Source of the DNA: Chiloscyllium plagiosum
Lineage: Eukaryota
Direction: 5' to 3'
Length of the DNA: 64,000 nucleotides
NCBI RefSeq assembly: GCF_004010195.1
Contig: NC_057718.1
Span: forward strand, 78,480,935-78,544,934
Below are positions 2,543 to 41,765 of this stretch, piece after piece; positions within the stretch are counted from its first letter, which is position 1; each line of letters opens with the position of its first letter. The notes under the pieces were generated by a model. That model did not search any database. It was not told the DNA's origin and worked only from the letters and a program-made list of their open reading frames with translations. Made by a program: the position numbers and the translations under genes.

Positions 2543-5500
2543 GTATGCATACTGTCATCAACCAATCAAAACTTTGCAGTGTAATGCCGATTTTCTTATA
2601 TTATTTAATCATACAATTAATTTACTTGTAGGTTTGGCAGAAAATCGAGCTTCCTGTTTGCAACATTTGTAACTTCAGCTCTGGGACTTGTAGTACCATT
2701 CTTACCGAATTACACTTGGTTTTTGATTTTCCGTACGTTGCAAGGCTTGTTCAGCAAAGGAAGTTGGGTGTGCGCATATGTCTTCAGTAAGAATTATACT
2801 TTTACCCACATGTTAATAACACAGTCAATGTCTTTTACAATAATAGCTACTGCAGTGCTGAACTTGCCTTTAGCACATAATCTGCCAATTAAATTAGCTA
2901 ACATTGATGTTTACATAATTTCTGCCATATAAATCTTCAATATAGTATGCATCATTTTATGTATTATTGCACCATTAAGTTAATGTAGTTATTAACAACT
3001 ACATTCTTTGGCCAATATTTTTTCTGATGTGATGATATATATATTTACTAATATATTTCAGTAACTAAAAATGCGAAGTCCTCTTCAGTAATATCATTTA
3101 ATAAATTGTAACACTAGGAGGACATTTGTTTAGCTGTAGTTATGAGAGACCATAAATAGGAACAGGAATAGATCGTTTGGCCTCTTGAGTCTGTTTTGCC
3201 TTCCAATAGGATCGTGGCTGATCCAATATTCCTCATGTCCACTTTCTTGCCCTTTCCCTTAGGTTCTCAATCAGTAGAGGAACCATCTATTTCAGCCCTA
3301 AATATACACATGGACTCTACCCCATTGCTGTTTGTGGTAAGGAGTTCCAAAGATTAGCAATCTTCTGAGAGAAGAAATTCCTCCTTATCTCAGTTATAAA
3401 TTAGTGGAAATTTACTCTGAGACAATGCCGCCTGATCCAAATACTCCCATGAGGGGAAACATTCTCCCAGCATTTACCCTGTCAAGACCCTTAGGAATCC
3501 TGTATGTTTCAATGAAATCACCTTTCATTCTTCTAAGCTCAAGTGAGTAGAGCTACTACTTGTTTAGCTGTTGCTCATAAGACAACCCCACCATGCTAAA
3601 GGATCATCCTAGTGGACGCTCTCTGACTGCCTCCAATGAAATGATTTCTTGGCTTAAATAAGGGAACCAAAACTGCTCAAAGCATTCCAGATATGGTCTC
3701 ACCAGCACTTTGTGCGGTTGCAGTAAGACTTTCCTACTCTTATACTCCAACATTCTTGAGAAAAGAGCCAACATTTCACTAGCCTTCCTGATTACTGGTT
3801 GCACCTTTGTGCTTTGTGTTTCATGCACAAATGCCCTCAAGACCTTTTGTGTTGTAGCATTTTTCTCAATTAAATAATATTCTGTACTCAATTCTTCCAA
3901 ATTAAACAACTTTGCATTTTCACTTCATTTGGAAATGTTTTGCCCATTTTCTTTACCTCCCAATATTTCTCTATAAACTGATTGTACTTCTCTCACAACT
4001 TACCTTTCCACCTAATTTTGAGTCATCTGCAAATTTGCTAATAACACATTCACTTCCTTCTTCCAAATCATAGAATCATAGACATGACTGAAACAGACCC
4101 TTCAAGTCCAATTCATCCATGCTGACCAAATCATTTATGAAAAGCAGTGGACCCAACACCAATCTTTGCAGGTCACAGGCCTCCAGTCTGTAAAGCAGCC
4201 CTCCACCACCACCCTCTAACTTCTCCCTTCAAGCCAGTTCTGTATCTAAATGACTAGTTCTCCCTGTATTCCATGTGATCTAACCTCAGTAATATGTATT
4301 GTAAACAGTTGTGGTCCAAGTGCTGATCCCTATGGACCCACAGGTCGTAGGTCACCAACCTGAAAAAGAACCGTATGCCCCAAACGATGTTTCCTTCCCA
4401 CTGAACCAATTGTCACACCAGACTTATTTTAAAAATGGTAAAATCATGTTCACATTAAACTAACATTCTGGAAATGTAATGATAATTGCCAATACAAAAT
4501 AGATTCCAGTGTCTGGAATCAAAATACCATCTAAGTATCAGAAGACAGCATGCTTAAGCAAAGGCTGTAGAGTGTAATGGTTCTTGAGCAAAACCTGGAT
4601 GTTAGAGCACACTAAGTAACATCAGAGAAATAGTCAGATGTTTCAGGCACTCTCTTTGTGATAAAACTATGAGGTTGTGTTTCTCGTCCTTGCTCCTATC
4701 TAGACAGCTTTTCAATCAGAATATAGTTCCACAAATTAACATCTACATCGGTAAAATTGTTCAAAATGGCAGGTTTGGTATAGTTTTCTAACTTTCTGGA
4801 GTTTTTAGTCGGCAGAACAATGGAACCAGCTTGGTTTGGTTCCTTAGTGTAGGTAATAGAATATTAAATCATTGGTGCATTCTTTTTTTACCACAAAGCA
4901 TATCACTAATTTATGAGCTAACATTTTGTTTCAGTTACAGAGCTTGTTGGACTACAGTACAGAAGAACAGTGGGTATTCTATATCAAGTGTGTTTCAGCT
5001 CGGGGATGATGCTACTTGCAGCTGTTGCTTATTTTATACCAGACTGGAGAAATCTACAGCTGGCAACTACCATTCCAGGCTTTTTCTTCCTGACCTACTA
5101 CTGGTAACATCTGTAAAGATTACCATTATCTGAGTTGAGTAAAGGTATTTCAAGCTTAACAATAAACTAGATGTATTCCATTTGCAGGTTGATCCCAGAG
5201 TCTCCCAGGTGGATGCTGTCTCAAAAGAAGAATACTGAAGCTGTGAATGTCATACAGCAAATGGCAAAAAGGAACGGGAAAAGCTTTTCAAAGAAAATTG
5301 AGGTGATTAACCTAGAGTCATAGAACTGTACAGCACGAAAACAGACCCTTCTGTCCAGCTCGTCCATGCCGACCAGACATATTAAATTAATCTTGTCTCA
5401 TTATGCCAACATTTGGCCCATATCCCTCTAAACTCTTCGTATTCATATACCCATCCAGATACCATTTAAATGTTGTAATTGTAGTCTCCACCACTTCCTC

Positions 5501-8500: not shown

Positions 8501-11500
8501 TGCTTCTTAAAAAAAGTCATTTCTTGTATGATTGAAAATTTCACCAGCAGTTTGAATGAGAAACCACTTCGGCTATACATTATTACAGAGAAACATCATT
8601 ATTCATCAGACATACATTGAAAATCTCTGGCACAAAGGAAGTAACTTGGCTCGTTGTTTCTTTGCCACTTATAAAAGAGCTATCCAGTCCAATCGCAGTT
8701 GCCAGCTGTTGGCCCATCATTCTGTAGCTTGTACCAATGCAAGTGCATCTGCAAGTACTTTGAAATGTGACAAAACTTTCTGCCACTACCAATCTTTTTA
8801 AGCAATGAGCTCAAGACTCTAATCACCCTCTAGGTGGAATTACTTTTCCTTTCCTTGATGGAACCAAAATGTTTTCAAAGTACGACACAATGTCTCTTGA
8901 GCACTTTGAAGGCTAATGGATTTGAAATTGTTAAAAGGCAAATTTTTAACACTGTTTTAGAGGTAACATCAACTGTTTTTAAAATTTGTGTTATATTGAC
9001 TAACAAATGCACTTTTGTCTTCTTGGGCCAGTATGAGAGTCTGGCATAGTCAGAACAGCCCCAGTCCATAAGACACAGGAGTGGAAATAAGGCCATTTGG
9101 CCCATCGGGTCCACTCCGCCATTCAATCATGGCTGATGGGCATTTCAACTCCACTTACCTGCATTCTCCCCGTAGCCCTTAATTCCTTGTGACATCAAGA
9201 ATTTATCGTCCCAGCCTCCACTGCACTCTGCGGCAATGAATTCCACAGGCCCACCACTCTCTGGCTGAAGAAATGTCTCCGCATTTCTGTTCTGAATTTA
9301 CCCCCTCTAATTCTAAGGCTGTGTCCACGGGTCCTAGTCTCCTCGCCTAACAGAAACAATTTCCTAGCGTCCACCCTCGCCAAGCCATGTACTATCTTGT
9401 AAGTTTCTATTAGATCTCCCCTTAATCTTCTAAACTCCAATGAATACAATCACAGGATCCTCAGCACAACGGTGCTTTTATATTCCAACCCTCTTGAGTC
9501 ACATTGCTTTCTGTTAGTTCGCTTTCATTCATTGAAGATTTGTATATTGAGGCATGACTTTCTTATTCCTATAGATAGTTGAAGAGCACAGTGAGGACTT
9601 TAATCGTCCTTCCTTTGTAGAGCTGGTACGGACTCCTCAGATGAGGAAACACACCTTTATCTTGACATTTAACTGGTGAGATTTTTTTTCTATAAATGTT
9701 TGATTTTAGGAGACTCCCTAGAGAAAATAAACTGTTTTATAAAATACATGCATTATATAGAAAACAGATTGAAGGACCAATATTAAGAAAATGAAAGTAT
9801 TTGACTAAAAAACCTTGTTCATTTAGCCTGTTCTCGCCACACCTAATTACATTATACCCATCATTGAAGCTTCACAGCTTATTTAAGCTGAATGTTTGAA
9901 TTGCAGTTTAGATATAAAAGCAGTCTTTTTTTTGTTAAAAGGGTTTTGTTAGAGTAGATAGGAATAAATTGCATCTGACATCAGATGTATCAGGGCAGAT
10001 TATAGGACAGATTTAACAGTAGAGGCCAAGAATGGTGGAAATAAAGAATATTTTTTATCCAGCAAGTTATGAGGCTCTGTGTTGACCAAAGTAAAATGAA
10101 TTAACTTTCTTAAACGGGTGAAATTTTCAGGGCTATAGGGAAAATGCAGAAGATTGGGAACCACGTGATAGCTCTTTGAGGTCTGGCACCAACATGATGT
10201 TTTACATGGCCTCCTCTCATACTGTAAAGTTCCATGTCTCTTCCAATATTTAACCTTAATTGCATAAATTATTCTAAAGAATGGAAAAATATGGACCCGC
10301 AGCAGATATGCAAAGCAGGGAGGATGATAAAAATGTTGGGCTTGTAGAAAATCAAGCAATGACATCATAGGAAAGTCACAAGTTGTTTTCGGAATTCTGT
10401 GCAAATGCTGACATTGAGAAAATATTTCTTTCAAACAATAAATAATTATAAGCGAAATAATTCTATAAGAGAATCTAACAGAATAGTAGTAAGATATGAG
10501 TGATTTAATTATTTACATCATCCTAAAGCAGTAAATGCATTGGATTCTAGGCTTTAAGTAGTACAGAAAGTGGTAGTTAAAAGAGAAATTCGTTATGTAA
10601 TAATTCATCACATAATTACTTAAGATTAATTAATGATGGCAGGGATGGCGATGTGCTATGACTACAGAAGCTCATGGGCACCAGTATGAAGGCTAGCACA
10701 TCAGAAATGAGCGTTTGCTGTTTGAGCAGCTAAGTTCAGAGTTAGAATTAAATCCTCACTGGCTTAGTGCCTGATTCTACTGTGCTGCATTGTGCAGAAG
10801 GCTCCTCCTGCTCAATGTTCTGATTTTTCTCCTTGGAAGACTGCTCCTGCTGTCTTAACCTATAATCTTCTATCACACCTCCTCTTTGCCTACTCCAGTT
10901 GGGCAGGGGACAACATGCTAGGATTATTTTGCACTCTTTGTCCAACTGTACCCCTCCTTCCTCAAGATCAATTGAAGTAGGCCACTATTGGAATATTGTG
11001 TGCAATTCTGGTCTCCTTCCTATCGGAAAGATGTTGTGAAACTTGAAAGGGTTCAGAAAAGATTTACAAGGATGTTGCAAGGGTTGGAGGATTTGAGCTA
11101 TAGGGAGAGGCTGAACAGGCTGGGGCTGTTTTCCCTGGAGCTAAGGGGTGACCTTATAGAGTTTTACAAAATGATGAGGGGCATGGATAGGGTAAATAGA
11201 CAAAATCTTTTCCCTTGGGTCAGGGAGTCCAGAACTAGAGGGCATAGGTTTAGGGTGAGAGGGGAAAGATATAAAAGAGACCTAAGGGGCAACTTTTTCA
11301 CACAAAAGATGGTATGTGTATGGAATGCCTGCCAGAGGAAGTGGTGGAGGCTGGTACAACTGCAACATTTAAGAGGCATTTGGATGGGTATATGAATAGG
11401 AAGGGTTTGGAGGGACATGGGCCGGCTGCTGGCAGGTGGGACTAGATTGGGTTGGGATATCTGGTCGGCATGGACGGGTTGGACTGAAGGGTCTGTTTCC

Positions 11501-14500: not shown

Positions 14501-17500
14501 ACCCTCTAAGAGATTTAATCTGCTTTACAAGTCCTATAGTTAGCCGCTTTTAATGGGTGCTTGATCTGAATTTCTCTCCTTGGTTGCTGGGTTTTTTTTT
14601 AGAAAAACTGATCTCATTGATTTTTCTTTTCCCTTGTTCCCCCTACTGCTAACTTTTAAAAATATCTTTACAAGTGTCTTTGGTGGCTTCTCTGTAGGAA
14701 CTTTGTTTTTAATTCATAGCTTCTATTCAGCTTGATAGCTGATTTCTCACTGGTCTTAAAAGCGTTGTTTTGGAAAAGTAGTTTTTGTTTTTAGTTCTTT
14801 GCTTCTCCATTGATTTTAGTCTGATTCTTGATCTACACTAATGTCATGATTTTCAAAATAGTGGATCCCACTGCTGCCATCTACTTTTATCATGTGGTTT
14901 TCTGTCCACTAAGAGCTGGGTTTGAGACAGACTGATGGAGGTAAAGGCAAGGTCAAGAACTGTCTCCAGGCTTAGTCTTCTTTGTTTATCGCATGCATGG
15001 TAATCTGAAACTTATCAGGCTCTAATCTTACCTTTACATTGTTAAGAGACTATTCCTTGGACATTATCAATCTTCTATCTTTAACCTATCTAACTAAGTC
15101 CACCCTGGTTGCATCCAGTGGGCATAAAAAGCACAATCTCATCACAAGATTGCACCAGGGTCCTAGCTACCAAATAAAGCTATTGGACTATTACCTGGTG
15201 CTGTTTGATTTTAATTAATTAACATTAGTCCAAAAATGGCTAGGTCTATACCTCATGGTAGACTGGTTAGCAAGGTTAGATCATATGAAATACCGTGAGA
15301 ACTAACTATTTGGATACAGAACTGGCTCGAAGGTAAAAGAAAAGGATGGGAGTGGATGGTTGTTTTTTCGGACTGGAGGCCTGTGCCACAAGGATCGGTG
15401 CTGGGATCATTGCTTTTCATGATGGATATAAATTATTTGGATGTGAACATAGGACGTATGGTTAGGAAGTTTGCAGATGACACCAAAATTAGAGGTGCAG
15501 TAGACAGAGTACAACAGGATCTTAATCAAATGAACCAATGGGCTGAGGAGTGGCAGATGGAGTTTAATTTAGATAAATATAAGGTGTTGCATTTTGGAAA
15601 GGCAAATCAAGGCAGGACTTATACACTTAATGGCAAGACCCTGAGAAGTGTTGCTGAACAGAGAGACCTTGGAGGGCAGGTTCATAGTTCCTTGAAAATG
15701 GAATCGCAGGTAGATGGATATTGAAGAAGGGTTTGGTACACTTGCCTTTATTGGTCAGTCCATAGAGTCTAGGAGTTGGGAGTTCATGTTCTGGTTGTAC
15801 AGGGCATTGGTTAGGGCTTTTGGAATACTGCAAGAAATTCTGGTCTCCCTGCTTTAGGAAGGTTGTTGTGAAATTTGGAAGAGCTCAGAAAACATTTACA
15901 AGGATGTTGCCAGTGTAGGAGGGTTTGAGCTAGAGGGAGAGGTTGAATAGATTGGGGCCATTTTCCCTGGAGCATCAGAGGCTGAGGGGTGAACTTATAG
16001 AAGTTCATAACATCATGAAGGGCAATGGATAGGGTAAATAAATATGGTCTTTTCCCTGCGGTAGAGGAGTCCAACATTAGAGGGCATTGCCCTAAGGTGA
16101 AAGGGGAATGATTTAAAAGGAATCTAAAGGGCAACTTTTTCATGTAGAAGGTGGTGCATGTATGGAATGAGCTGCCAGAGGAAGTGGTGGAGACTGGAAC
16201 AATTACAGAATTTAAAAGGCATCTGGATTGGTATATCAATAGGAAGGGTGTGGAGGGATATGGGCCAAATGTTGGCAAATGGGACTAGATTTATTTAGGA
16301 TATAGGTCAGCATGGACGAGTTGGACTGACGGGTCTGTTTCCTTGCTGTACATCTCTATGACATTATGGTCCGCAGGTGTAGATACCATGTCTAAATGAT
16401 TCACTCACTCATTCAATGGACCAGATTAACCTTTTCTGCACTCCCTCATGACTGTTTTTGCCAAGACTGGGGCTTTAAGCTCATTTTTAAGATAGCAGTG
16501 TCAAAGAATTGGCAGTCTTTTATTCAGCCTTATTGAATGGAACTACACTCTGGAGGGTGGAGATATTGTGCTCTGTGAACCTGTAGTTAAAAAATAGCTG
16601 AAAGCATTCATTGGCTGCTCTCATTCATTCTATCATGTTATTCTACAAATGGAGAAAGGGTGTGAAATAGTCTATATTCTGTATATTCTTTTGAAATTCA
16701 ATCACTAACCATTTTATCCTGTTTCACTCTGATAGAATAATCAATTGTATGCATTTAATTTAATTATTTCTCACTATGTAATCATTACATTTATAAACAG
16801 TGTAATGTAGCCTTTACAAAATCACTGCCTAAATACCTAGTTCTAAGAATTGCAGAATTACACACAAAAACCTTGTTAATGGGGCAATGTCTGAGTGTCC
16901 TTTACCTGCTGATGATTTCCATTGACATCTGCTGGGTAAATTCCAGCTTGAATATGGATGGTTCCTGTTGAGGTTTATCCAATTTGATTGCCTGAACACA
17001 CACTGTGCAGTAGAAAGGAAAAGTTCATATTTTCATGTATCACAATGATCTGTGATACTGTGATACAATAATCTTTGCAATGACGTATAGCCTGTTATCT
17101 TAAGAATGGCACACTGTCATCTGGAATTATCTTGATTCTGTTAAGTTGCCACTGGAGTAATATGCACGCAACTTCATTACAGGTTTGCTATTACCTTGGT
17201 ATACCAAGGGCTTATCATGCGTTTGGGAACTCTGGGAGGAAATATTTACCTTGACTTCTTCATTTCGGGAGCAGTAGAAATCCCAGCAGCAATTCTCATC
17301 CTTTCAACCATTGAGCGGATTGGACGGCGCCTTCCCTTTGCGGCAGGTGGTCTGTTGTCAGGGAGCACTTGTCTAATAGCTGCATTCATACCTGAAAGTA
17401 AGTACTATGGTTAGCACTGGGATTCTGATACAGACCCAGCCCAACAAACTGGATTAGGTGTCTGCTATGCCAATGGAATAAAATCTTAGAGCACAGAACA

Positions 17501-20500
17501 AAGGAATTGAACCCATAATCTCCATTCCAGACCTCCATAAAAACTTCTCATTTGTTCCAATACTCCAATTTTTCCTTATTGCCCTTTTTTAAAATTTTCA
17601 AATACTTATCCAACTTCCTTTTGAATATTGCTATTGAATCTGCTTCTACCACCTTTTTCAGTCAGTGCATTTCAGTTCATTGAATATATTCAAGGGTGAT
17701 TTAGACAGAGTTTGATGATTGATTGAGTAAAGTATGGGGTCAGGCAAAAATAGTTGAGTTAAGATCACAATCAGATCAACTGTGTGATTTTATCACATGG
17801 CAGAGAAGGCTTGATGGCCAAATGATTTTATGACCTTAAATTGTAAAAATTCACTATAGAAAAATATTCCTAATCTCTTCCCTGATTAATTTCTCAATTA
17901 TCTTAGTTCCTGTGCCCTCTGGCTACTGACTGCCCTTCTGATAGAAACAGATCTTTCCCATCCACTATATCAAAATCCTTCATCATTTCAAATACTTCTA
18001 TTAAATCTCACCCTAAATTGCTCTATCCTAACTTCTCCAATTTCCCCATATGACTGAAGGTACTCATCTCTGGTTACAATCTGGTGAAGTAACTGACATG
18101 TACATGAAACTTACTTGGTTCCAGTAAAGTGAGAAAATGCACTAATGCATTATATCTCAGAGCATCAACATAGAAGGTCATAAGAGACACATTCTCTCTC
18201 AGCTGGAAGGTTCATTTCCAGACGTTTTGTTACCCTACTAGGTAACATCTTCAGTGGGCCTCAGGCAAAGCAATGCTGAAAATTCCTGCTTTCTATTTAT
18301 ATTTTGGTTTCTTTGGGTTGATTATGTCATTTCCTGTGGTGAAGTCACTTCTGTTCCTTTTCTCATGTGGTAGATGGGGTTTAACTCGATGTGTTTGTTG
18401 ATAGAGTTCTGGTTGGAATGCCATGCTTCTAGGAATTCTCATGCATTTCTTTGTTTGGCTTATCCTAAAATGGATGTGTTGTCCCAGTCGAAGTAGTGTC
18501 CTTCCTCTTCCGTATGTGAGGATACTAGTGAGAGAGGGTCATGTCTTTTTGTGGCTAGTTGGTGTTCCTGTATCCTGGTGGCTAGTTTTCTGCCTGTTTG
18601 TCCAAAATAGTGTTTGTTACGGTGTCCTTGCACGGTGTTTTGTAAATGACATTAGTTTTGCTTGTTTTCTGTATAGGGTCTTTAAAGTTCATTAGCTGAT
18701 GTTTTAGGTGGCTAGTTTTCTGCCTGTTTGTCCAAAATAGTGTTTGTTACAGTCCTTGCACGGTGTTTTGTAAATGACATTAGTTTTGCTTGTTTTCTGT
18801 ATAGGGTCTTTAAAGTTCATTAGCTGATGTTTTAGTGTGTTGGTGGGTTTGTGGGCTACTGTGATGCCAAGGAATCTGAGTAGTCTGGCAGTCATTTCTG
18901 AGATGTCTTTGATGTAGGGGAGAGTGGCGAGGGTTTCTGGACGTGGTTTGTCTGCTTGTTTGGATTTGTTGCTGAGAAATCAGTGGACTGTGTTCATTGG
19001 GTACCCATTCTTTTTGACTACACAGTATAGGTGATTCTTCTCTGCTGTGTGTAGTTCCTCTGTACTGCAGTGTGTGTTGGTTTGTTGAAATAATGTTCTG
19101 ATGCAGCTTCGTTTGTGGATGTTGGGATGATTGCTTCTGTAGTTCAGTATTTGGCCTGTATGTGTTGTTTTCCTGTAGATGTTAGTTTGAAGTTCCCCAT
19201 TGGCTGTTCGCTCTACTGTGACATCTAGGAATGGCAGTTTGTTGTTGTTTTCCTCCTCTTTAGTGAATTTTATGCTAGTAAGGATATTATTGATGGTCTT
19301 GAAGGTTTCTCTAATTTGTTTCGTTTAGTGATGACAAAGGTGTCATCCACATAGCGGACCCAGAATTTGAGTTGGATGGTTGACAGAGCTGTTTGCACAA
19401 GACTCTGCATTACTGCCTCTGCTAAGAACCCTGATATTGGAGATCCCATGGGTTTTCCGTTGGTTTGTCTGTAGGTTTTTGGTGTTGTAGGTGAAGTGGG
19501 TGGTAAGGCATAGGTCCACTAGCTTGATAATATTCTCCTTATTGATGAAGTTAGTGGTATTTGGTGTCTGTGTCTTTGGGTCTTCTAATAGTTCAAAGTT
19601 TGTGCGAAGATTTGTAGCTCGGGTGCTCGTTGTTGTGGTTCTGTTCGCCGAGCTGGAAGTTTTTGTTGCAAACGTTTCGTCCCCTGGCTAGGCGACATCA
19701 TCAGTGCTGGGTACCCAATATACCAACCACGACAGCGGACAGCTGAAACTGACAACCGGAAACGGCAGGGACAGACCACTATAAACACCAGAGGAAACAT
19801 CAAAGAAGCGCTTCGCAGGAGGCTCCCAAGCACTGATGATGTCACCTAGCCAGGGGACGAAACGTTTGCAACAAAAACTTCCAACTCGGCGAACAGAACC
19901 ACAACAACGAGCACCCGAGCTACAAATCTTCACACAAACTTNNNNNNNNNNNNNNNNNNNNNNNNNNNNNNNNNNNNNNNNNNNNNNNNNNNNNNNNNNN
20001 NNNNNNNNNNNNNNNNNNNNNNNNNNNNNNNNNNNNNNNNNNNNNNNNNNNNNNNNNNNNNNNNNNNNNNNNNNNNNNNNNNNNNNNNNNNNNNNNNNNN
20101 NNAGAATATGGAAAACACTTTTAAAGCAAAAGATGACTGCTTCGGGGAATGAGGTTGTTCCATATTAGATGAATGCTGTGGTTCTGTTTGCCGGGCTGGG
20201 AGTTTTTGTTGCAAACGTTTCGTCCCCTGTCTAGGTGACATCATCAGTGCTTGGGAGCCTCCTGCGAAGCGCTTCTTTGTTGTTTCCTCCGGTGTTTATA
20301 GTGGTCTGTCCCTGCCGCTTCCGGTTGTCAGTTTCAGCTGTCCGCTGTAGTGGTTGGTATATTGGGTCCCGGTCGATGTGTTTGTTGATGGAGTTTGTGG
20401 ATGAATGCCATGCCTCTAGGAATTCCCTGGCTGTTCTCTGTCTGGCTTGCCCTATGATAGTAGTGTTGTCCCAGTCGAATTCATGTTGCTTGTTGTCTGT

Positions 20501-23500
20501 GTGTGTGGCTACTAAGGATAGCTGGTCGTGTCGTTTCGTGGCTAGTTGATGTTCATGTATGCGGATTGTTAGCTGTCTTCCTGTTTGTCCTATGTAGTGT
20601 TTTGTGCAGTCCTTGCATGGTATTTTGTACACTACATTAGTTTTGCTCATGTTGGGTATCGGGTCCTTCGTTCTGTTGAGTTGTTGTCTGAGCGTGGCTG
20701 TTGGTTTGTGTGCTGTTATGAGTCCTAGGGGTCGCAGTACATGAACATCAACTAGCCACGAAACGACACGACCAGCTATCCTTAGTAGCCACACACGCAG
20801 ACAACAAGCAACATGAATTCGACTGGGACAACACTACTATCATAGGGCAAGCCAGACAGAGAACAGCCAGGGAATTCCTAGAGGCATGGCATTCATCCAC
20901 AAACTCCATCAACAAACACATCGACCTGGACCCAATATACCAACCACTACAGCGGACAGCTGAATCTGACAACCGGAAGCGGCAGGAACAGACCACTATA
21001 AACACCGGAGGAAACATCAAAGAAGCGCTTCGCAGGAGGCTCCCAAGCACTGATGATGTCGCCTAGCCAGGGGACGAAACGTTTGCAACAAAAACTTCCA
21101 GCTCTTCCAATAGTGTTATCGGTGTTTCCTTGGCCAGGTTAATGTTGATTGAAGTAAACAGGGCTGTTACATCAAAGGAGACCATTATTTCCTCCTCTTC
21201 TATCTGTGTCTTTGATGGTCTTCAGGAATTCTTGGGTGGAGTGGCATAAGTCTAAGTGTTTTAACTCCTTGGCCAATCTGTAAGTTGGTGTTCCAGGTAG
21301 CGAGACTATGGGTCTGAAGGGGGATCCTGGTTTGAGAGTTTTGGGTAATCTGTGGAAGTGTGTTGGATCCGTCTGGTTTCAGTTTTTGGAAGTCGGTCTT
21401 ATTTATTTCTCCAGATTTCTGAAGTATTTTGAGTCAGGCTGTGATTCAGTTCTCTAGTTGTGGGGTTGGGTCTATCGCCACTTGTTGGTAAGTGTTTAAG
21501 TGTTGGTATCTGTAAGTAGTGCGTTTGCTTTTTCAGTGTAGTCTCTTCAATTTAGAATGACTGTCAAGCATCCTTTGTCTGCAGATAGGATAACAATGTT
21601 TTTATCTTTTTAAAGTCTTTCCAGTCCTTTCCTTTCCTTGTATATTGAGTGTGTTTCCTTCCTTTTTTCTGCTTAATGTTGGTGCGACTACCTGTCTGAT
21701 GGTTTGCTGGGTTTCTTCTGTGAGTTGGTTGTCTTTTAGTGTTGTTTTTAGAATGACTGTCAAGCATCCTTTGTCTACAGATAGGATAACAATGTTTTTA
21801 TCTTTTTAAAGTCTTTCCAGTCCTTTCCTTTCTTGTATATTGAGTGTGTTTCCTTTTTTTCTGCTTAATGTTCGTGCGACTACCTGTCTGATGGTTTGCT
21901 GGGTTTCTTCTGTGAGTTGGTTGTCTTTTAGTGTTGTTTCTAATGCTGCTAAGAAATTGTCCACATCCTGGCAGTTGTAATTTAATCCTCTTACTAAGCT
22001 GGCGTTTTCAATGTCTGTTAAGGGTCGATTAGATAAGTTTTTTAACATGCTTCTGTGTTGTCATTGTTGTTACTTTGTGCGAGTTTGTCTAGTTTTTCCT
22101 GCGGGTCTAGTTTTTTTCATTTTCTGTGTTTGTTGCTGACAGTTAGACCCAATGAACACAGTCTGCCATTTCTCAGCGACAAACCAGAACTCTAACAACA
22201 AACACATCGAGTTAAAACCCATCTACCACCCCATGAGAAAAGGAACAGGAAGTTACTTCACCACAGGAAATAACATCACCACAGGAAATGACATCAGCAA
22301 CCCAAAGAAACCCAAGCATATAAATAGAAAGCAGGAATTTTCAACATTCCTTCGCCTGAGGCCCACTGAAGATGTTACTTAGTAGGGTAACGAAACATCT
22401 GGAAATGAACCTTACAGCTCAGCGAGCAAATATACATCCAAAACCTGAACCTGAGCTACAAGTCTTCTCAAAATTCGCTAACATTTTCTCAGTGACTAAT
22501 TCTTGTTATGCAATTGCGATAATGGACTGTTTATTTTGTCCAGATTACTGTTTAAAAAAAAAACTCAGGGCCCTTTTTGAAGTCAGTAATTGATCCTTTT
22601 TGTGTCACAAAATAATTGGCATCCTATTCCTGCCCTGTTAAAAGCTGTTCACCTGTCAATTGAGCTCTACTTTCTGTTTTTGCCAACTGACATGGAAATT
22701 GGTTATTTCATTACTCAGGTTAGTGACTGCACCAACTTGTACTCACTGCACATCACACCTGCCTCAAACCTGTGGGTATTGACCCAAAGAATAATTGTGA
22801 AATCTTGCAGAAATGCAATTAGTTCATTTAAATCTCTCAACAACCATAACTAGTTATGAACAATTACTTAATTTGTTTTCTGAAAATTCAGTCTTGCTAA
22901 TGGTACTTTTTATCTATATCTTCCATTTCAGGTATCAGTTGGTTGGCAACAGCAATAGCCTTTGTGGGTAAATTAGGAATCACTATCTGCATCGAAATGG
23001 TGATATTTGTAAATACTGAACTATACCCAACATTTATAAGGTGTGAACTGAATAGATGTTCTCCACATTAACAAAAGTTCATCAATGATTCTGAATAAAA
23101 GTATAGCTCTAATTCAGTTATTGATTACACTGAATATCATTATCCATTCTCTTGAACTATGCTGTCAAGGCAAAATCTGACTTGTTGAAAATACTTAGTG
23201 CTTGTGAAATGTGGAAACTATTTTGCATGCCAATAAACATCTTTTTTTTAAAAAACAGGAACCTTGGTGTTTCAGCATGCTCATCACTGTGCGATATTGG
23301 AGGGATTGCTGCTCCATTCATTGTGTACCGACTGTCAGAAATCTGGATGGGGTTACCTCTTGTGGTTTTAGGTGAGGATTGTGTATCAAGTATAATGCAC
23401 TCTGCTATTTTAATGCTGCACTTTTATCACAACTATATCTCTGCCCCTAATTGTAATTTTCAGAAGTTTCAATATGTCCAGAATGGAGAGAGACTTCAGA

Positions 23501-26500: not shown

Positions 26501-29500
26501 TGTGGCATGAATTGGTTTGTCCTGACATTCTCCCTGCATCTCATGTCCAAACCTTAAATCACTTTTCCATAGTCCTTTGACCAACAGAGTCATACAACAC
26601 ACAAACAGACCCTTTGATCTAGCCAGTCCATAATCCCAAACTAAACTAGGCCCACCTTCCTGCTCCTGGCCCATATCCTTCCAAATCTTTCCCCTTCATG
26701 TACTTACCTAAGCGTCTGTTAAACATTGTAACTGTGCCTGCAACCATTACTTCCTCAGAAAGTTCATTCCATGTCTTAAATCTTTTCATTTCTAACAAAG
26801 GAGCATCAAAATTAAATGCGAATGAATTATTTCTTTCTCAGTGTCGCCTGACACATAAAGATATTTAGCATTTCTATCAATCCAACAGGAGCCAGGGTTC
26901 TGCCTTCTCATCCCACTCCCACTTCTGGTGTCTCCCAAGAATCTCTCCTGGGTCTCACTCGATTTTTCATCTACATGCAGCCGAACAGTGACATCATTTT
27001 AAAAACAATGTCAGATTCCACAGCTATGCTGGCGATAGCCACTAACACCGCCATCAATCACTCTACTACCTTTGATTTGTTATGATGTTTGTCCATCGAG
27101 TAGTAAGTTACAAAAATTTGCTGTAATTAAATGTCAGGCAGACAAAATGAATTGTCCCAACTACAAACTCCATTCTCCAATCACCAATTTCATTCCTTTC
27201 CCTTAACAACTGAGACTATAAGAAGACCAATTAAAAACACGGTGAGCTACAGCACCCTGAACAAGGAGACTCAGTATTAGAATAAATCGGACCAGTCAGG
27301 ATAGAGATAGGAAGATATTTCTTCACTGAGAGGGTGGACTATCTTTGGAATTTTCTATCTCAGAGGACTATGAAAGTCGAGGTAGTTGAAGAAAATTGAT
27401 AGATTTCTAGATAGGACAACATCAAGGATTGTGCAGATAGTATGAGAAAATGCCTTTGAAGTAGGTGATCAGGCATGATCTGTAATGGCAGAGCAAGCCT
27501 GAGGGGTTCAATGACCTACTCTTCCTATGTTCCTAAAATTAACTTTGGATTTCCTATCCTCTGCCTACTTCTACCTATCGAACACAGCCTGTCTCCACTC
27601 TGTACCAACTCATCAGTTGTTGGAAACTTCAGTCAGGCCATGGATACCATAAGACTTGACTATTCCAATGTATCCCTTTGCTGGCCTTCCACTTATCCTC
27701 TGTAAACTAACGATTATCCAAAACTCTGTTACATTTTCTAACTAGCTGCTGACCTACCTTGTCTGCTAGTCTAGACATAAATTTTTAGAATTGGCATCCT
27801 TGGTTTCAAATTGCTCCATGACCAGGTCCCTTCCAATCTCTGTAACCCCCTTCAACCACCAAAGATCCCTGCATTTCTCCAATTCTGGCTTCTTGTACCC
27901 CCCTCCCAGCAATCATCACTCCACCTTGGTGATAATACTTTCAGCTTCCAAGGCCATTAAAACTTGAATTCCCTTATTTAACATCCATACAGCTGTACAT
28001 ACCTCCTCCTCTTTTCAAATGATCCTTGCGAAGTTGACTTCTTTGACCAAGTTTTAGTCAGCTGTAGTATCTCATGTCTCTTCGGTATATTAACTCGAAT
28101 TTTATTTCGTCAAAATCTCTATGAAGCACCTTGGAATATTATATTATGTTAAAGGCACTGCACAGGTTCAAGTTGGTGTTCAATAGAATGGGCTGTGCAA
28201 AGTTTGTGGTAATGATTATTTACCAAGTGACAAGTAATTGATAAAACAAGAGAAGCAAAGAATGTAAATTTAGTGAACTATCACAACATAAGCGAGCTCA
28301 ATTTAAAGGAACAAAAATAGAAATTGCTGGAAAACCTCAGCAGGCCTGGATTGTCTGTGGAGAACAAACAGAGTCAATGTCTTGGGTCCAGTGACCCTTC
28401 TTCAGAACTGATTGTAATTACGAAAAGATGGTGATGAAGACTGAAGGTGGAGAGGAATGGGGGGGTGGGGAGAATGGCGGGAGGGGATGGGGGAAGGAAT
28501 AAACAGTGAGAAGCAGCTGGAATTATAAGACAGCCTAATCATGCAGTACCATTTTTAATTGCCACGGGCAGTTCTCCTGGGTATTTTTCTGGAGCAGTCT
28601 CAATGGATTGCCAAATTTATTGAATTAAATTTCAGGACCGATCACATTGGGAAATGATCTCTTGGCCTTTGCTAGTCTAGATCAGTTAATGCTCACCAGA
28701 ATAAAGAAACCTAAATTAAAAACAGAAGCTGCTTGAAACTCTCAGGTCTGGCAACATCTGTGAAGAGTAAACAGAGTTAATGTTTCAGGTCCCGTGACTG
28801 TTCCTCACAACCATTGCTCAGTTCTGAACTTTAATTTTGATTTCTCTTCGCAGATGTTGCCAGACCTGCTGAGCTTTTCCAGCAACTTCTGTTTTTGTTT
28901 CTGATTTATAGCATCCACAGTAATTTCAGTTTTTAAGGGCACGGTGGCACAGTGGTTAGCACTGCTGCCTCGCAGCGCCAGAGACCCGGGTTCAATTCCC
29001 ACCTCAGGCGACTGACTGTGTGGAGTTTGCACGTTCTCCCCGTGTCTGCGTGGGTTTCCTCTGGGTGNNNNNNNNNNNNNNNNNNNNNNNNNNNNNNNNN
29101 NNTAATCTAATCTAATCTAATCTAAACTCACTTAATCTTTGTGAGGAAGTCACAAAGTGATGAAATTACTTCTCAAGACCGAGCAGTTCTATATTAGTCA
29201 TAAACAAAACTATTTTTTCTGCAAACACACATTCCTCACTTCTGTTTCATGATTCAGTGATATGAAAAACTAAACAGTCTGAAAATGTGTTTTCCTAACG
29301 TGCATCAGAAAGAATTATATTCCCGAGTGAATGTTTTACAAATTTAATTTAAACTAAATCATTTGTCTAGTTGCAAATAAATCTTTTACTGTTCTGTCCA
29401 TTCATTGCCAGGGGTGCTTGGTTTGATTGTTGGTGGCCTAGTGTTGCTCTTGCCTGAAACAAAGGGCATGACTTTACCAGACACCGTTGAAGATGTGGAG

Positions 29501-32500
29501 AATCTCAGACGGTAAGCAAACAGTGACAGAAGCACTTACCCATTGATGTGCTCTTGCCATTAACCTTACTCCACATTGTGCGCGCACTGGCAAAATTTCC
29601 TATCTCTGGCAATGCTACATCACTGCCAAGAGACCAATCACAAGGTCTATCAAGCTTGGATGCTCAATGATTGGAAGGTGGCAGGTCCTCAGTGCTGTTG
29701 GTGCAGTTCTCCCTCCCTGCCGCCCAACCAAGTCGAAACATTATTTCTCTCACTGCTACTCTGTGAGCTTTGCTACAGCTCCCAGCCTTAGTCTCTCCTT
29801 CTGACCTTGGCTGCAGCTCCCAGCCTTTGTCCCCACTCATGGTCTTTGCCACAGCTTCTGGAATTTTGACCTCATCTGCTCATGCATTACCAATGTGTTA
29901 TTATTATACATGAAACATAGTGATGTCAGCTGTGTATGCACTAATCTGTTCTGGTCTAGTGATGTTTGCCATCAGTAACTGATGAAAATAGGTCAATTTT
30001 CACATGTGGCCAGTCTGACTGTCATGTTTGTGGTAATCACTCTGAAAATAAAGAAAGGAAAGCTCTGCTGTAAGTTGGTGGGCAGATAGATTAACTGACA
30101 AAAGGTTTCATGTGACAAGTACGGAAATAAGAGACGTGTCCTGATAAATTGTGAACTGCAGATTGATTAGACAGACAGACAGAAGGAAGGAAGGAAGGCA
30201 GGCAGGCAGAGAAAAAAAAAGTCAAATCAGCAAACAAAAAAAAATCCAACAGGGCAGAGGTTTCAAATCAAAATTGTTGAAATAAGAATTGAGTTTGGAA
30301 AGCTGTAACATGCCTACTTTAAAAGTAAGATGTGGTCACTGTTCTTCAGGCTGACAGTGGGCTTGACTGGAACTCTGGAGGAGGATGAGAACAGAATGTT
30401 AGAATGTGAAAAAAGTTGAAGATTAAAATGAAAAGCGACAAGAGGTTCAGGGTCATTTCTGTGGACAGAACAGAGGTGTTCCACAAAGTTGTCATCTAGT
30501 AGTGGAGACCACATTGTGGGGAGTGAATATTAGATACTTAATTGAAAGAAGTACAAATAAATGGTTGCTTTGCCTTGGAGGAATATTTGGGAGTGCTTCT
30601 CCTAGACTTGTACAATGCATAGACATAGGAATAGGAGCAGACCATTCAGCCTGTTGAGCCTGCTCTGCCATTCAATTAGATCACGTCTGATCGTGCATTT
30701 TAATACCAACTTCTCCACACTATCTCCCTATCCTTTGTGTCATTAGATCCTGCAGAAGGTTAGGGTTAGCCTAATCTAGCCAAACTGTATTGATTTCAGT
30801 CTTGCAAATGCTCAATGACTGAACATCATACCCACCCACACCTCCCCCACCACCCAGCCTGATCCCTCCCCTCCCCCCCCAACACCCAGGTAGAGTATCC
30901 CAAAGAATCTCACCTGTCTGAGAGAATAAATTCCTTCTTCTACAAGTAATATCCTCAAACAGAAACTCTAAAGAGCTTGCCAAAAATGATTTCCTGTTCA
31001 TAAATCCATGTCTCTGCCTAACTTTACCATTCTTTTCTAAAACAGCTGAAATTATTGGGCACAATATTGTTGGTCTCACAGATGTGGCTCCAAGAGATCA
31101 GGACTGGGAACTAAGTATCCCAAAGAGATGTATCCTAATGAAAGGATAAGCAATGGGCATAGCGGCTGGGGTAGGATTACCTTGCTAGTAAAAAAAAACA
31201 AAATTGACAATAAGAGTGATATAGAGTTGGAAGGTGTAGAATCAGTATGGGTAGAGTCGAAGAACCGTAAAGGAAGGAAAATAACCCGAAAGGAGTTATG
31301 TACAGGTCTTCAAAAAGTAGTCAGGATGTGGGGCAGAAAATAAATTGTGAAATGGAAAAGGCTTGTAAGAAAGGCACTGTTACAATAATCAAAGGGGACT
31401 TCAAAACGCAGGAGGACTGGGAAGATCAGGTTGGTAGTAGATTTCAAGAAGAAGGATTTGTAGTATGTCTACGAGATGTTCTTTTTAGGAGCAGCTTGTT
31501 GCAGAGCCAGATTGGTGTCAGGCAGTTCAGGATTTAGTGATCTCTAACAGGGCAGACTCGATTGCCTTGTAAACCACTTATAGTTGAGATCCACCTTTAG
31601 AAAATTGTCCAAAATGAGTTTACAAGCATTGCCAATTGTAACTTTGAAATTGAATATTAAAACAAGTTATTTATTCTGTTGGGAAGCAGAACCCCAATGT
31701 AAATTTTTATTTTGAAGAACGATAGCTATTTCTTTTAAAAATAATGCTTTTGACTCATTATTTTGGACAAGAAAGCTGTTTGAACCACCAAAACATAGGA
31801 TATGAAATCGCTTACTTAAAGAGACAATGTTAATCATTTCAACTCAATTATTCTGAAGATCATTTCTATGTGGAATATTTCTAGTGTGTTGATCCAGGTA
31901 TTGAAATGCCTAACGCCACATTAAGCAGTGCATCAAGCACCACTGGTGAGTCCCTGATTTGAGTTTATAATGATGAAGAGTATGAATTGGCAGTGTTACA
32001 TATTGTACTCCTTGAAAAGAATGATGCAGTTGCCCAATATTGAAATTTTCCTGGCCATTTATGTCTGTGCAGGTTGTAAATAAAGTGTATTTGGAAAAAA
32101 AAATTGGGGCGATTGAGAGTTATAAGGTAGCCAGTAAGGATCTGAACAGAGAGCTAAGAGCAGCAAGGAGGGGACATGAAAAGTCCTTAGTTGGTAGGAT
32201 TAGGGAAAACCCAAAGGCTTTCTATAGGTATGTCAGGAATAAAAGAATGACTAGGGTAGGAATAGGTCCAGTCAAGGATAGTAGTGGGAAGTTGAGTGTG
32301 GAGGCTGAAGAGATTGGGGAGACACTGAATGAATACTTTTCGTCAGTATTCACTCAGGAACAGGATATTGTTGCCGATGTGAATACTGAGTCACAATTAA
32401 TTAGAATAGACGGCTTTGAGGTATGTAGGGAAGAGTTGTTGGAAATTCTGGAAAGGGTGAAAATAGGTAAGTCCCCTTGGCCTGATGGCATTTATCCTAA

Positions 32501-38896: not shown

Positions 38897-41042
38897 TTGG
38901 ATGTAGGTTTGCTCGCTGAGCTGAAAGGTTCATTTCCAGATGTTTCATTACCTTACTAGGTAACATCTTCAGTGGACTTCATGCGAAGCAATGCTGAAAT
39001 TTCCTGCTTTCTATTTATATGTTTGGGTTTCTTTGGGTTGGTGATGTCATTTCCTGTGGAGAAGTCACTTCCTGTTCCTTTTCCCAGGGGGTGGTAGATG
39101 GGGTCTAACTCAATGTGTTTGTTGATAGAGTTCTGGTTGCAATGCTATGCTTCTAGGAATTCTCGTGCATGTCTTTGTTTGGCTTGTCCTAGGATGGATG
39201 TATGGTCCCAGTCGAAGTGGTGTCCTTCCTCATCTGTATGTGAGGATACTAGTGAGAGAGGGTCATGTCTTTTTGTGGCTAGTTGGTGTTCATGTATCCT
39301 GGTGGCTAGTTTTCTGTCTGTTTCTCCAATGTATTGTTTGTTACAGTCCTTGCACAGTATTTTGTAAATGACGTTAGTTTTGCTCATTGTCTGTATAGGG
39401 TCTTTAGCCTTTAAGTTCATTAGCTGCTGTTTTAGTGTGTTGGTGGGTTTGTGGGCTACCATGATGCCAAGGGGTCTGAGTAGTCTGGCAGTCATTTCCA
39501 AAATGTCTTTGATGTAGGGGAATGTGGCTAGGGTTTCTGGACGTGGTTTGTCTGCTTGTTTGGGTTTGTTACTGAGAAATCGGCGGACTGTGTTCATTGG
39601 GTACCCAGTCTTTTTGACTGTACAGTATAAGTGATTTTTCTCTGCTCTGTATAGTTCCTCTGTGCTGCAGTGTAGTAATGTTTGAAGTAATGTTCTCTTT
39701 GAAGTAATGTTCTCGTGCAGTTTCGTCTGTTGGTGTTGGGATGATTACTTCTGTAGTTCAATATTTGTTCTGTATGTGTTGTTTTTCTGTAGATGCTGGT
39801 TTGAAATTCCCCATTAGCTGTTTGCCATTGGGTAATCCGTAGAAGTGTGGTGTGTTGGATCCATCTGGTTTCATTTTTTGGAAGTCTGTCTTATTTATTT
39901 GTCCAGATTTCTGAACTGTTTTAAATAGGGCTGTGATTTGGTTCTCTAGTTGTGGGGTCAGGTCTATTGCCACTTGTTGGTACGTGTTGGTATCTGTAAG
40001 TAGTGAGTTTGTTTTTTCAATGTAGTCTCTTCGATTTAGAATGACTGTCAAGCTTCCTCTGTCTTTTGGTAGAATAATAATGTTTTTATCTTTTTTTAGT
40101 CTTTCCAGTGCTTTCCTTTCTTGTGTAGAGTGTGTTTCCTTCCTTTTTTCTGCTTAATGTTGGAGTGACTACTTGTCTGATGGATTGTTGGGTTTCTTCT
40201 GAGAGTTGGTTGTCTTTTAGTGTTGTTTCTAATGCTGATAAGAAATCTTTGTTGTCCGCATCCTGGTAATTTAGTCCTCTTACTAAGACGGCTTTTTCAG
40301 TGACTGTTAAAGGTCAGTCAGATAAGTTTTTTATCCATGCTTCTCTGTTATAATTGTTGTTACTTTGTGTAAGTTTATCTAGTTTTTTTTGCAGGTCTAG
40401 TTTTTTCATTTTCCATGTTTGTCATTGCCTAATATCTATGGCTTGTTGTACTGTGTCTGTCCATTCATGCAACGTCTGTTGCATGACTAAGTAAAGATTT
40501 TTGATGTAAAGTTTCCAGGTTGTATTTACAGAGTCTGTTGTGGGGATTATTAATCATTTCTTTAAGCATTCTGCTGCCATTTTGCTCTGCTATTATGGCT
40601 AGTGGGATGTTAAGGGGAGATTTGTATTGAAGACATTTAGGTCATACCTGCTTCCTTAGGCATTTGTTCGCGGGTGGCACTCTGTCGGATGACATTCGTT
40701 TCCCGTTTTTGGGTCAGTTTTAGCGTATTACGCCCATAGGTCTTAACGAGTTTTGAGAAGATTTGTAGCTCAACAAACACAATGAGTTAGACCCCATCTA
40801 CCACCCCCTTAGAAAAGAACAGGAAGTGACTTCACCACAGGAAATAACATCACCAAAGGAAATGATATCACCAACCCAAACATATAAATAGAAAGCAAGA
40901 AGTTGCAGCATTGTTTTACATGAAGTCCACTGAAGATGTTACCTAGTAAGGTAATGAAAAATCTGGAAATGAACCTTTCATCTCAGCGAGCAAACCTACA
41001 TCCAAAACCTCAACCTGAGCTACAAATCTTCTCAAAACTTGC
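38897..41042 (-). mobile_element. Penelope family A element with internal RT deletion and inverted pseudo-LTRs
   Basis: ORF 39145..39597 VIYKILCKDCNKQYIGETDRKLATRIHEH; 38897-39125 is inverted at 40770-41005; hammerhead-like motifs at 38936-38975 (-) and 40927-40966 (+). Confidence 0.9.
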
Positions 41043-41128: not shown

Positions 41129-41765
41129 AAAAATCACACAACACCAGGTTATAGTCCAACAGGTTTATTTTGAAATACTAGCTATCAGGGTGCTGCTCCT
41201 TCATCAGGTTGCTGTGGAGCAGGGCTGTAAGACAATATGTAGCAAAAAGGTTACAGTATCTGCATTTACAGAATTATTTCAGATTCATTCTATTTCGCTC
41301 AAAAAGTGTACAATCTGCAGGCAGTCATTCTGCGTAATATTTTATAAATTCCACTTTGGAAATAGAACCAGTCTGGCTCAAGATTGGGATACAGACAGAC
41401 TCTAACCTCACACCTTTAATGCAATATCTGAGCTGAAACATCACTTTTTTAAAAAAAAACCTACACTATCTTGGGAATGTGACTTAAAAGCAGCTCTGGG
41501 ATTTACATGTTAATGAACCGAAACCTGCAATCCATTCTAAAAGATGAAAAACTTAACAGCATTCTAGGTTTGTTCAATATCATTTCAGTTTCATGAACTG
41601 CAATCTTTTGCTAAAATTCTGTGTCTTATGGTCCTGCCCCACAACTACCTGATGAAGGAGCAGCGCTCTGAAAGCTCGCGCTTCCAAATAAACCTGTTGG
41701 ACTATAATCTGGTGTTGTATGATTTTTAACTTTGTCCACCCCAGTCCAATAGCAGCTCCTCCACA
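41129..41765. mobile_element. Short Penelope-derived element (family D) with about 130 bp inverted ends carrying hammerhead motifs
   Basis: aaaaatcacacaacaccagg...ccttcatcagg is mirrored at 41596-41729; atatccctag occurs on both flanks. Confidence 0.75.

Follow-up and report, generated by a model that had tools for sequence, protein, structure and literature searches.

Do intact hammerhead motifs in a host intron act on the pre-mRNA that carries them, or do they travel in it passively? This question is raised by four such motifs, two on each strand, in intron 7 of an SLC22A2/3-like gene of the bamboo shark Chiloscyllium plagiosum, within a stretch of 64,000 nucleotides (nt) of contig NC_057718.1 (positions 78,480,935 to 78,544,934; hereafter the window). 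A preliminary description of this sequence had proposed that the two copies on the sense strand could pair within one transcript as a dimer and so cut the host pre-mRNA, and that the two antisense copies could mask them. As argued below, the four motifs are very probably the hammerheads of the pseudo-long terminal repeats (pLTRs) of a young Poseidon-type Penelope-like element (PLE), here family A, which arrived as one compound insertion in an older Penelope copy, family B; they are likely inert passengers, spliced out uncut.

Anatomy and abundance of the hammerhead motifs

The four copies are located as follows.

19668-19707, - strand: hammerhead copy 1, 40 nt
19830-19869, + strand: hammerhead copy 2, 40 nt, predicted cut after 19866
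20211-20250, - strand: hammerhead copy 3, 40 nt
21047-21086, + strand: hammerhead copy 4, 40 nt, predicted cut after 21083

All four were confirmed in the assembly at the places and with the anatomy first described, each having a GCA/UGC stem I, CUGAUGA, one extra U, the G10.1-C11.1 pair, GAAA and CGUU. The core CUGANGA...GAAA...UH is present in every copy, with GUU as the cleavage triplet, as is the palindrome AACGUU (positions 15.2-16.2), and there is no stable helix III. The extra base after A9 and the G10.1-C11.1 pair agree with the definition of the minimal hammerhead ribozyme (min-HHR), and the motifs lie in the pLTR of a PLE, directly after a GIY-YIG fragment. Their assignment to the Penelope-type minimal type I hammerheads is thus borne out by core, palindrome and pLTR location. 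In the predicted fold, stem I is extendable by a distal GGAGG/CUUCC helix.

A 34-letter pattern of the motif has 4,057 exact matches (2,012 + 2,045) in the 3.56-Gb genome and none when reversed as a control, and the family B motif has 608. Within the window, a looser core pattern gives 7 matches versus 1.93 by chance, a number reached in 0 of 100 shuffles, and two further relics of the older family, at about 18218-18257 (-) and 22363-22402 (+), flank the four copies. The search with Rfam hammerhead models that had been proposed as a check lent no support, there being no match to these models at gathering score and none among the 6 matches at E up to 10. This silence is in keeping with the relaxed descriptor by which the minimal form was defined (PMC4209133). 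The best Rfam match, far under threshold, was to a microRNA model and was set aside as a reflection of the hairpin.

Among 17 aligned copies chosen from families A and B, the core is invariant, the positions N7 and H17 differ between subfamilies, 91.5% of the alignment cells in the stems are paired and both partners differ in 3 of 11 pairs. This conservation between families, with compensatory changes, suggests that the motif matters to the element. Selection would act on the motif of the transposon and not on the host intron, and the motif may be active in the element.

Also, in a sister subfamily of family A (L091-L150), core position 7 is G and position 17 is often C, which makes a GUC triplet; the variation keeps to tolerated positions. 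Further short hammerhead-like cores occur in the window at 41649, 62559, 50421, 49691, 47370 and 58585, and since at least two sequence types of these recur in many of the loci retrieved, other hammerhead-bearing repeat families are abundant in the genome.

A young element inserted into an older one

The motifs belong to a nest of two PLE copies, composed of the following features.

18194-19592, - strand: 3' half of the older Penelope-like family B (RVT_1 match; tblastn; paralogs 90-92%)
19581-19592, + strand: left target-site duplication of the family A insert, 12 bp, 11/12 identical to 21103-21114
19593-19711, - strand: family A pLTR end, long tail, with copy 1
19713-19941, + strand: family A pLTR arm with copy 2, ending at the gap, likely a gap-filling artefact
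19942-20102, no strand: assembly gap of 161 N, between the two + copies
20103-20173, no strand: captured non-element DNA, matching flanks on C10 and C28 (2/71 differences)
20174-20737, - strand: 3' fragment of family A, comprising GIY-YIG, pLTR and short tail, with copy 3, 86% to P0121
20738-21102, + strand: inverted family A arm with copy 4, mirror of 20184-20559
21103-21114, + strand: right target-site duplication
21115-22060, - strand: family B 5' half (N-terminus to reverse transcriptase), broken
22182-22481, + strand: family B inverted pLTR, with the relic at 22363-22402, palindrome lost

The family B copy spans 18194-22481, with its open reading frame (ORF) on the minus strand and an inverted pLTR at its 5' end; it has RVT_1 and GIY-YIG matches, and its best paralogs are 90-92% identical. 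Its 3' half holds the end of the reverse transcriptase (RT), GIY-YIG and a pLTR in which the hammerhead relic at about 18218-18257 has G12 changed to A. In most of the 14 family B loci retrieved, the position corresponding to 19592 is followed at once by that corresponding to 21103, the two sides overlapping by about 12 nt, and the target 12-mer occurs once in each of the 8 family B paralogs listed by a motif search. Because these paralogs are uninterrupted and hold a single 12-mer, 19593-21102 is one family A insert of about 1.5 kb with a 12-bp target duplication. Within it, the copy 4 arm is complementary to its mirror at 363 of 376 positions, the longest perfect run being 129.

The family B copy also contains internal tandem duplications of 128 nt (18577-18835) and about 195 nt (21551-21942). 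A second family B copy, with inverted ends, is found at 38936-40966, just beyond the last SLC22 coding exon, and carries two hammerhead relics (38936-38975, -; 40927-40966, +).

By its domain order and the missing linker zinc finger, family A is placed as a Poseidon-type PLE. The fragment at 20174-20737 has a weak GIY-YIG match (E 0.028), and P0121, which is 86% identical to 20234-20770, shows RVT_1 (E 3e-6) and then a 14-residue stretch, in line with an RT followed by a C-terminal GIY-YIG with CCHH motif. No CX2-5CxxC linker zinc finger was seen by eye in P0121, and the absence of this finger marks Penelope/Poseidon (PMC8557442). An open frame begins within the hammerhead core and extends through the tail, and family A copies stop at two fixed 3' points about 31 nt apart, giving the long and the short tail. 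The few differences from the family majority (106 of 7,521 sites over the copies, 2 of 365 in the copy 4 arm) indicate that the family is young.

The combination of sense and antisense copies is the default of this family. Among the first 100 matches listed there are 20 neighbouring pairs at 5 kb or less, 18 of them minus-then-plus, 2 same-strand and none plus-then-minus. With 5 mismatches allowed, a head-to-head pair is present at 13 of 25 independent loci, a count from which five second members of pairs had been removed beforehand, and of 21 inverted pairs, 14 combine a long tail with a short one (one end could not be called). Opposite-strand hammerheads 100-700 bp apart are known (PMC4209133). 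An inverted pLTR, a one-sided tail and a target duplication, all of which are found at this insert, have likewise been described (PMC3846280, PMC8557442), as for endonuclease-bearing (EN+) Penelope/Poseidon. Since the head-to-head layout is both the default of the family and already published, the supposed anti-ribozyme copies are the normal inverted arm of an insertion, and the idea of a purposeful ribozyme/anti-ribozyme arrangement gives way to that of the normal insertion product of the family, genome-wide. The insert is one of thousands alike, and its sense/antisense layout was already known.

Captured DNA and the origin of the insert

The segment 20103-20180 has matches at only two other places, C10 and C28. 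On C10, the captured flank is the DNA downstream of a 5'-truncated family A copy (L050:3443-5712). On C28, 1,128 nt of this flank (100% identical) are enclosed by a pair of direct pLTR fragments, with an inverted arm coming next, in an insert (L032:108-2538) bounded by a 13-bp duplication; at least 71 nt of C10-type flank are present in the window. The minus arm of the window and the middle arm of C28 have 6 derived differences in common, with 5 and 4 private ones, and the assembled C10 arm is without 4 of the 5 shared differences that it covers. The relation between C10 and C28 is not clean, the flank being identical over 1,128 nt yet the adjoining arms differing at several sites; collapse in the assembly is possible. 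Judged by these sequence comparisons, the insert has taken up host DNA from a different chromosome, and C10, C28 and the window probably form a source-and-daughters series. Capture of host DNA between pLTRs has been described in Adineta (PMC3846280).

Reverse transcription would have started on one pLTR RNA, at its long-tail site, and continued on a read-through RNA of a source copy with its downstream host DNA. A second priming would then have given the inverted arm, the product being two direct pLTRs and one inverted pLTR. The true order of the insert would thus likely be minus, minus, plus, the extra plus copy at 19830 coming from gap filling.

Status of the copy at 19830

The pattern of the sequence flanking this + copy suggests that it is probably an artefact of gap filling. 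In the window, the plus arm bears a long tail of variant sequence, which breaks off at the gap. The exact 62-nt tail is found at 18 loci, with N at the same base in 11 and N three bases later in 1; the junction is common to 14 of them, and an identical 232-nt string occurs in 5, on five contigs. In a control of 90 loci not picked for the variant tail, N followed a long tail in 0 of 38 cases and two long tails were seen in 0 of 21 inverted pairs. From the same-base N pattern and the zeros of the control we infer that gap filling probably ran into a collapsed repeat, and such inserts are known to trouble short-read assemblies (PMC8557442). The sibling insert on C28 has the order minus, minus, plus, which is the order of the window without copy 2.

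Alternatively, all four copies could be real, through two successive family A insertions at one spot with the junction between them hidden by the gap, and would still be passengers; we regard this as possible but doubtful. PLEs do insert beside earlier copies (PMC6765202), and the inversion junction before copy 2 has 112 occurrences in the genome. At 4 of the 12 loci retrieved (L063, L066, L068, L071) the insert around it is clean, being flanked by a duplication of 10-12 bp and having a plus arm with the short tail, so that the junction is a real recurrent product. A single target duplication nevertheless brackets the whole insert in the window, the left unit would be long-tailed on both arms, a state absent from the 21 control pairs, and the shared N at 11 of the 18 variant-tail loci has to be accounted for.

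The junction itself (19696-19724) has at its centre a short palindrome, which lies just upstream of the hammerhead, and recurs at 111 other places. It could be either a template-switch hotspot or the mark of a small subfamily, its count being partly inflated by assembly.

Folding of the sense copies and search for cleavage

In the pre-mRNA the antisense arm would be made first, and because of this order the sense arm would zip onto it while emerging and the core would never fold. In folding predictions, both sense copies pair with the mirror arm with a probability of about 1.0 at 39 of 40 positions. Forcing the hammerhead fold costs 69-70 kcal/mol, the palindrome duplex is worth -3.5 kcal/mol and the sense:antisense duplex -75 to -84 kcal/mol. 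Prefix folding gives 320 mirror pairs once transcription reaches 21050, and copy 3 is predicted to be likewise locked in a minus-strand transcript; in a free monomer, the hammerhead shape lies 2.4 kcal/mol above the minimum-energy fold. The masking proposed in the preliminary description is thus predicted, but as a constitutive rather than a switchable state, some 70 kcal/mol being needed to free a core. As for its claim that the two + copies are co-transcribed in intron 7, both are indeed in the assembly, but the one at 19830 is likely not at the locus.

No sign of cleavage was found among 136 RNA reads of the family (about 2% of run X21, all copies), depth being flat over the cut site with no pile-up of ends where RNA ends had been predicted. 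Five reads leaving the motif at the cut site were considered as cleavage products and rejected, because they match a genomic copy on C12 that ends there, overlapping its target duplication. At the DNA level, another letter stands just before the cut site in 89 copies and just after it in 55, and of the 30 variant loci retrieved for each position, 6 and 2, respectively, are true junctions, the rest being substitutions or small indels. There is no clear junction peak at the cut site in this weak test, which had no control at other positions.

The C12 copy (L151:1529-1800) is a transcribed family A stub. Its plus arm stops at the hammerhead cut site, where it overlaps the target duplication by microhomology.

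On these results it is scarcely credible that the AACGUU palindromes join the copies at 19830 and 21047 in a dimeric hammerhead by which the pre-mRNA is cut, the antisense copies serving as a tunable brake. Both cores are intact in the assembly, dimers and trimers of minimal hammerheads cleave somewhat (PMC4209133), and Cpeb3 mRNA is modulated by an intronic ribozyme resembling that of hepatitis delta virus (HDV; PMC10919898). Pairing would, however, gain about 3.5 kcal/mol for the roughly 70 spent on freeing each core, between copies that lie 1,217 nt apart, gap included, and one of which is likely an artefact. Close same-strand pairs number only 2 of 20, and the family reads have no ends at the cut site. 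Monomers of minimal hammerheads have no activity and dimers little (PMC4209133), and the Poseidon hammerhead of Anolis needs the protein of the element and shows no RNA-seq ends at its site (PMC11167929). Introns cut by a hammerhead are, in addition, reported to splice normally, unlike introns cut by the fast HDV ribozyme (PMC2995048, via its references).

The host gene and its intron

The host gene lies on the + strand, and the placement of the motifs in an SLC22 intron is upheld by its exons and GT..AG ends.

17183-17397, + strand: SLC22A2/3-like exon 7 (100% identity to P0004/P0005; AG..GT ends; RNA join to exon 8)
17398-22931, + strand: intron 7, 5,534 nt, GTAAGT..TTTCAG
22932-23040, + strand: SLC22A2/3-like exon 8 (tblastn; RNA contigs)

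For the ORF piece 17184-17396, identity to the SLC22A2-like Chiloscyllium proteins P0004 and P0005 is 100%, and SLC22A3 is the best relative with a solved structure. By tblastn, exons lie at about 2430-2549, 2630-2785, 4925-5320 (two exons), 9575-9676, 17184-17399, 22940-23041, 23257-23418, 29453-29512 and 37989-38114. The number 7 supposes, as is done here, that a single exon upstream of the window encodes residues 1-134.

The last 30 nt of exon 7 directly precede exon 8 in contigs of X18 and X19, two of the four runs, which also contain the exon 8-9 joint (depth 522 and 268); these runs come from two studies, are RNA by guess and bear the organism label C. Runs X21 and X23 gave 0 on exons 8-9, X22 gave 0 reads on the insert stretch and no RNA run was among those listed by a run search, outcomes that are treated as blanks and not as evidence. 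In contigs of X1 and X10, no piece across the right insert junction is present among the matches listed.

Long intronic duplexes are substrates of ADAR. With silent cores, the 376-bp hairpin and the family B arms could accordingly act as double-stranded RNA, leading to editing, slowed splicing of intron 7 or back-splicing. The 363 of 376 paired positions, the perfect run of 129 and the family B arms, which loop out the whole insert in a duplex of -167 kcal/mol, speak for such a role. It is nonetheless quite improbable, given that 1.8 kb separate the hairpin from the 3' splice site and 2.8 kb from the 5' one, that the exon 7-exon 8 join is seen in two RNA runs and that the same layout recurs at hundreds of loci.

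Also, predicted isoforms of MAP3K7, NT5DC1 and CUEDC2 in related sharks (P0124, P0129 and P0137) contain family A GIY-YIG sequence, which reflects either exonisation or annotation error.

Comparison with known systems

The shark motifs share with the min-HHR of metazoan PLEs (PMC4209133) the type I core, the extra base after A9, the G10.1-C11.1 pair, the palindromic 15.2-16.2 positions, the pLTR location, the thousands of scattered copies and the opposite-strand pairs 100-700 bp apart. They differ in having a 3-bp proximal stem I with a predicted distal helix. Poseidon_Ac of Anolis carolinensis (PMC11167929) has the same RT with C-terminal GIY-YIG, an ORF start at hammerhead stem II, two 3' ends defining the tail and no RNA-seq ends at the cut site, whereas the window holds only broken fragments. 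The Adineta elements Pen2a, Pen1 and Pen3a-NRPS (PMC3846280) show the same pair of direct pLTRs plus an inverted one, one-sided tail and target duplication, as well as insertion into another Penelope family and host DNA captured between pLTRs. In the shark, by contrast, the source locus C10 and the sibling C28 are traceable in one vertebrate genome, and the captured piece is non-coding.

Regulatory intronic ribozymes, such as the HDV-like ribozyme of CPEB3 (PMC10919898) and the ultraconserved amniote hammerheads, also place a sense-strand motif in a host intron. They are, however, single-copy, conserved and active as monomers, whereas the shark motif is a young multicopy repeat (4,057 copies, with the copy 4 arm 2/365 from the majority), has no stable helix III and is predicted to be sequestered in a hairpin in its pre-mRNA context, with mirror pairing of about 1.0 at 39 of 40 positions. 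Non-LTR retrozymes (bioRxiv 10.64898/2026.07.22.740005) likewise use a type I hammerhead derived from PLE pLTRs, but consist of head-to-tail tandem units; no tandem array holding the hammerhead motif was found at the shark insert.

Weight of the evidence and significance

Several observations weigh against the view of the four motifs as inert pLTR hammerheads of one compound insertion with an artefactual copy 2. The inversion junction is genuine at the four target-duplicated loci named above, and 6 of the 18 variant-tail loci continue without N, so that the case for an artefact is a statistical one. Families A and B have kept the same core and stems, 3 of 11 pairs being compensatory, although this is largely one split between two lineages. 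The folding results are equilibrium predictions that leave aside proteins, helicases and editing, and the RNA test is a weak one, drawing on about 2% of one poly(A) single-cell run and on all family copies rather than on this locus. Finally, X18 and X19 bear another organism label, and the animals concerned may lack the insert.

It is conceivable, but very improbable, that the copy at 21047 is a latent, protein-gated ribozyme, in which the protein of the element, a helicase or A-to-I editing opens the hairpin, so that the copy pairs in cis or with family transcripts and cuts the SLC22 pre-mRNA. If so, Penelope activity would dampen many host genes through intronic copies and the transposon would be coupled genome-wide to host mRNA output, which bears on the purpose of PLE hammerheads.

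As most likely read, the insert is of little significance, being one of thousands of similar ones. It carries a caution, in that gap filling can inflate the counts of close same-strand hammerheads in short-read assemblies, and the series formed by C10, C28 and the window may serve as a small record, left by nature, of host DNA capture by Penelope elements and of the making of their inverted arms.

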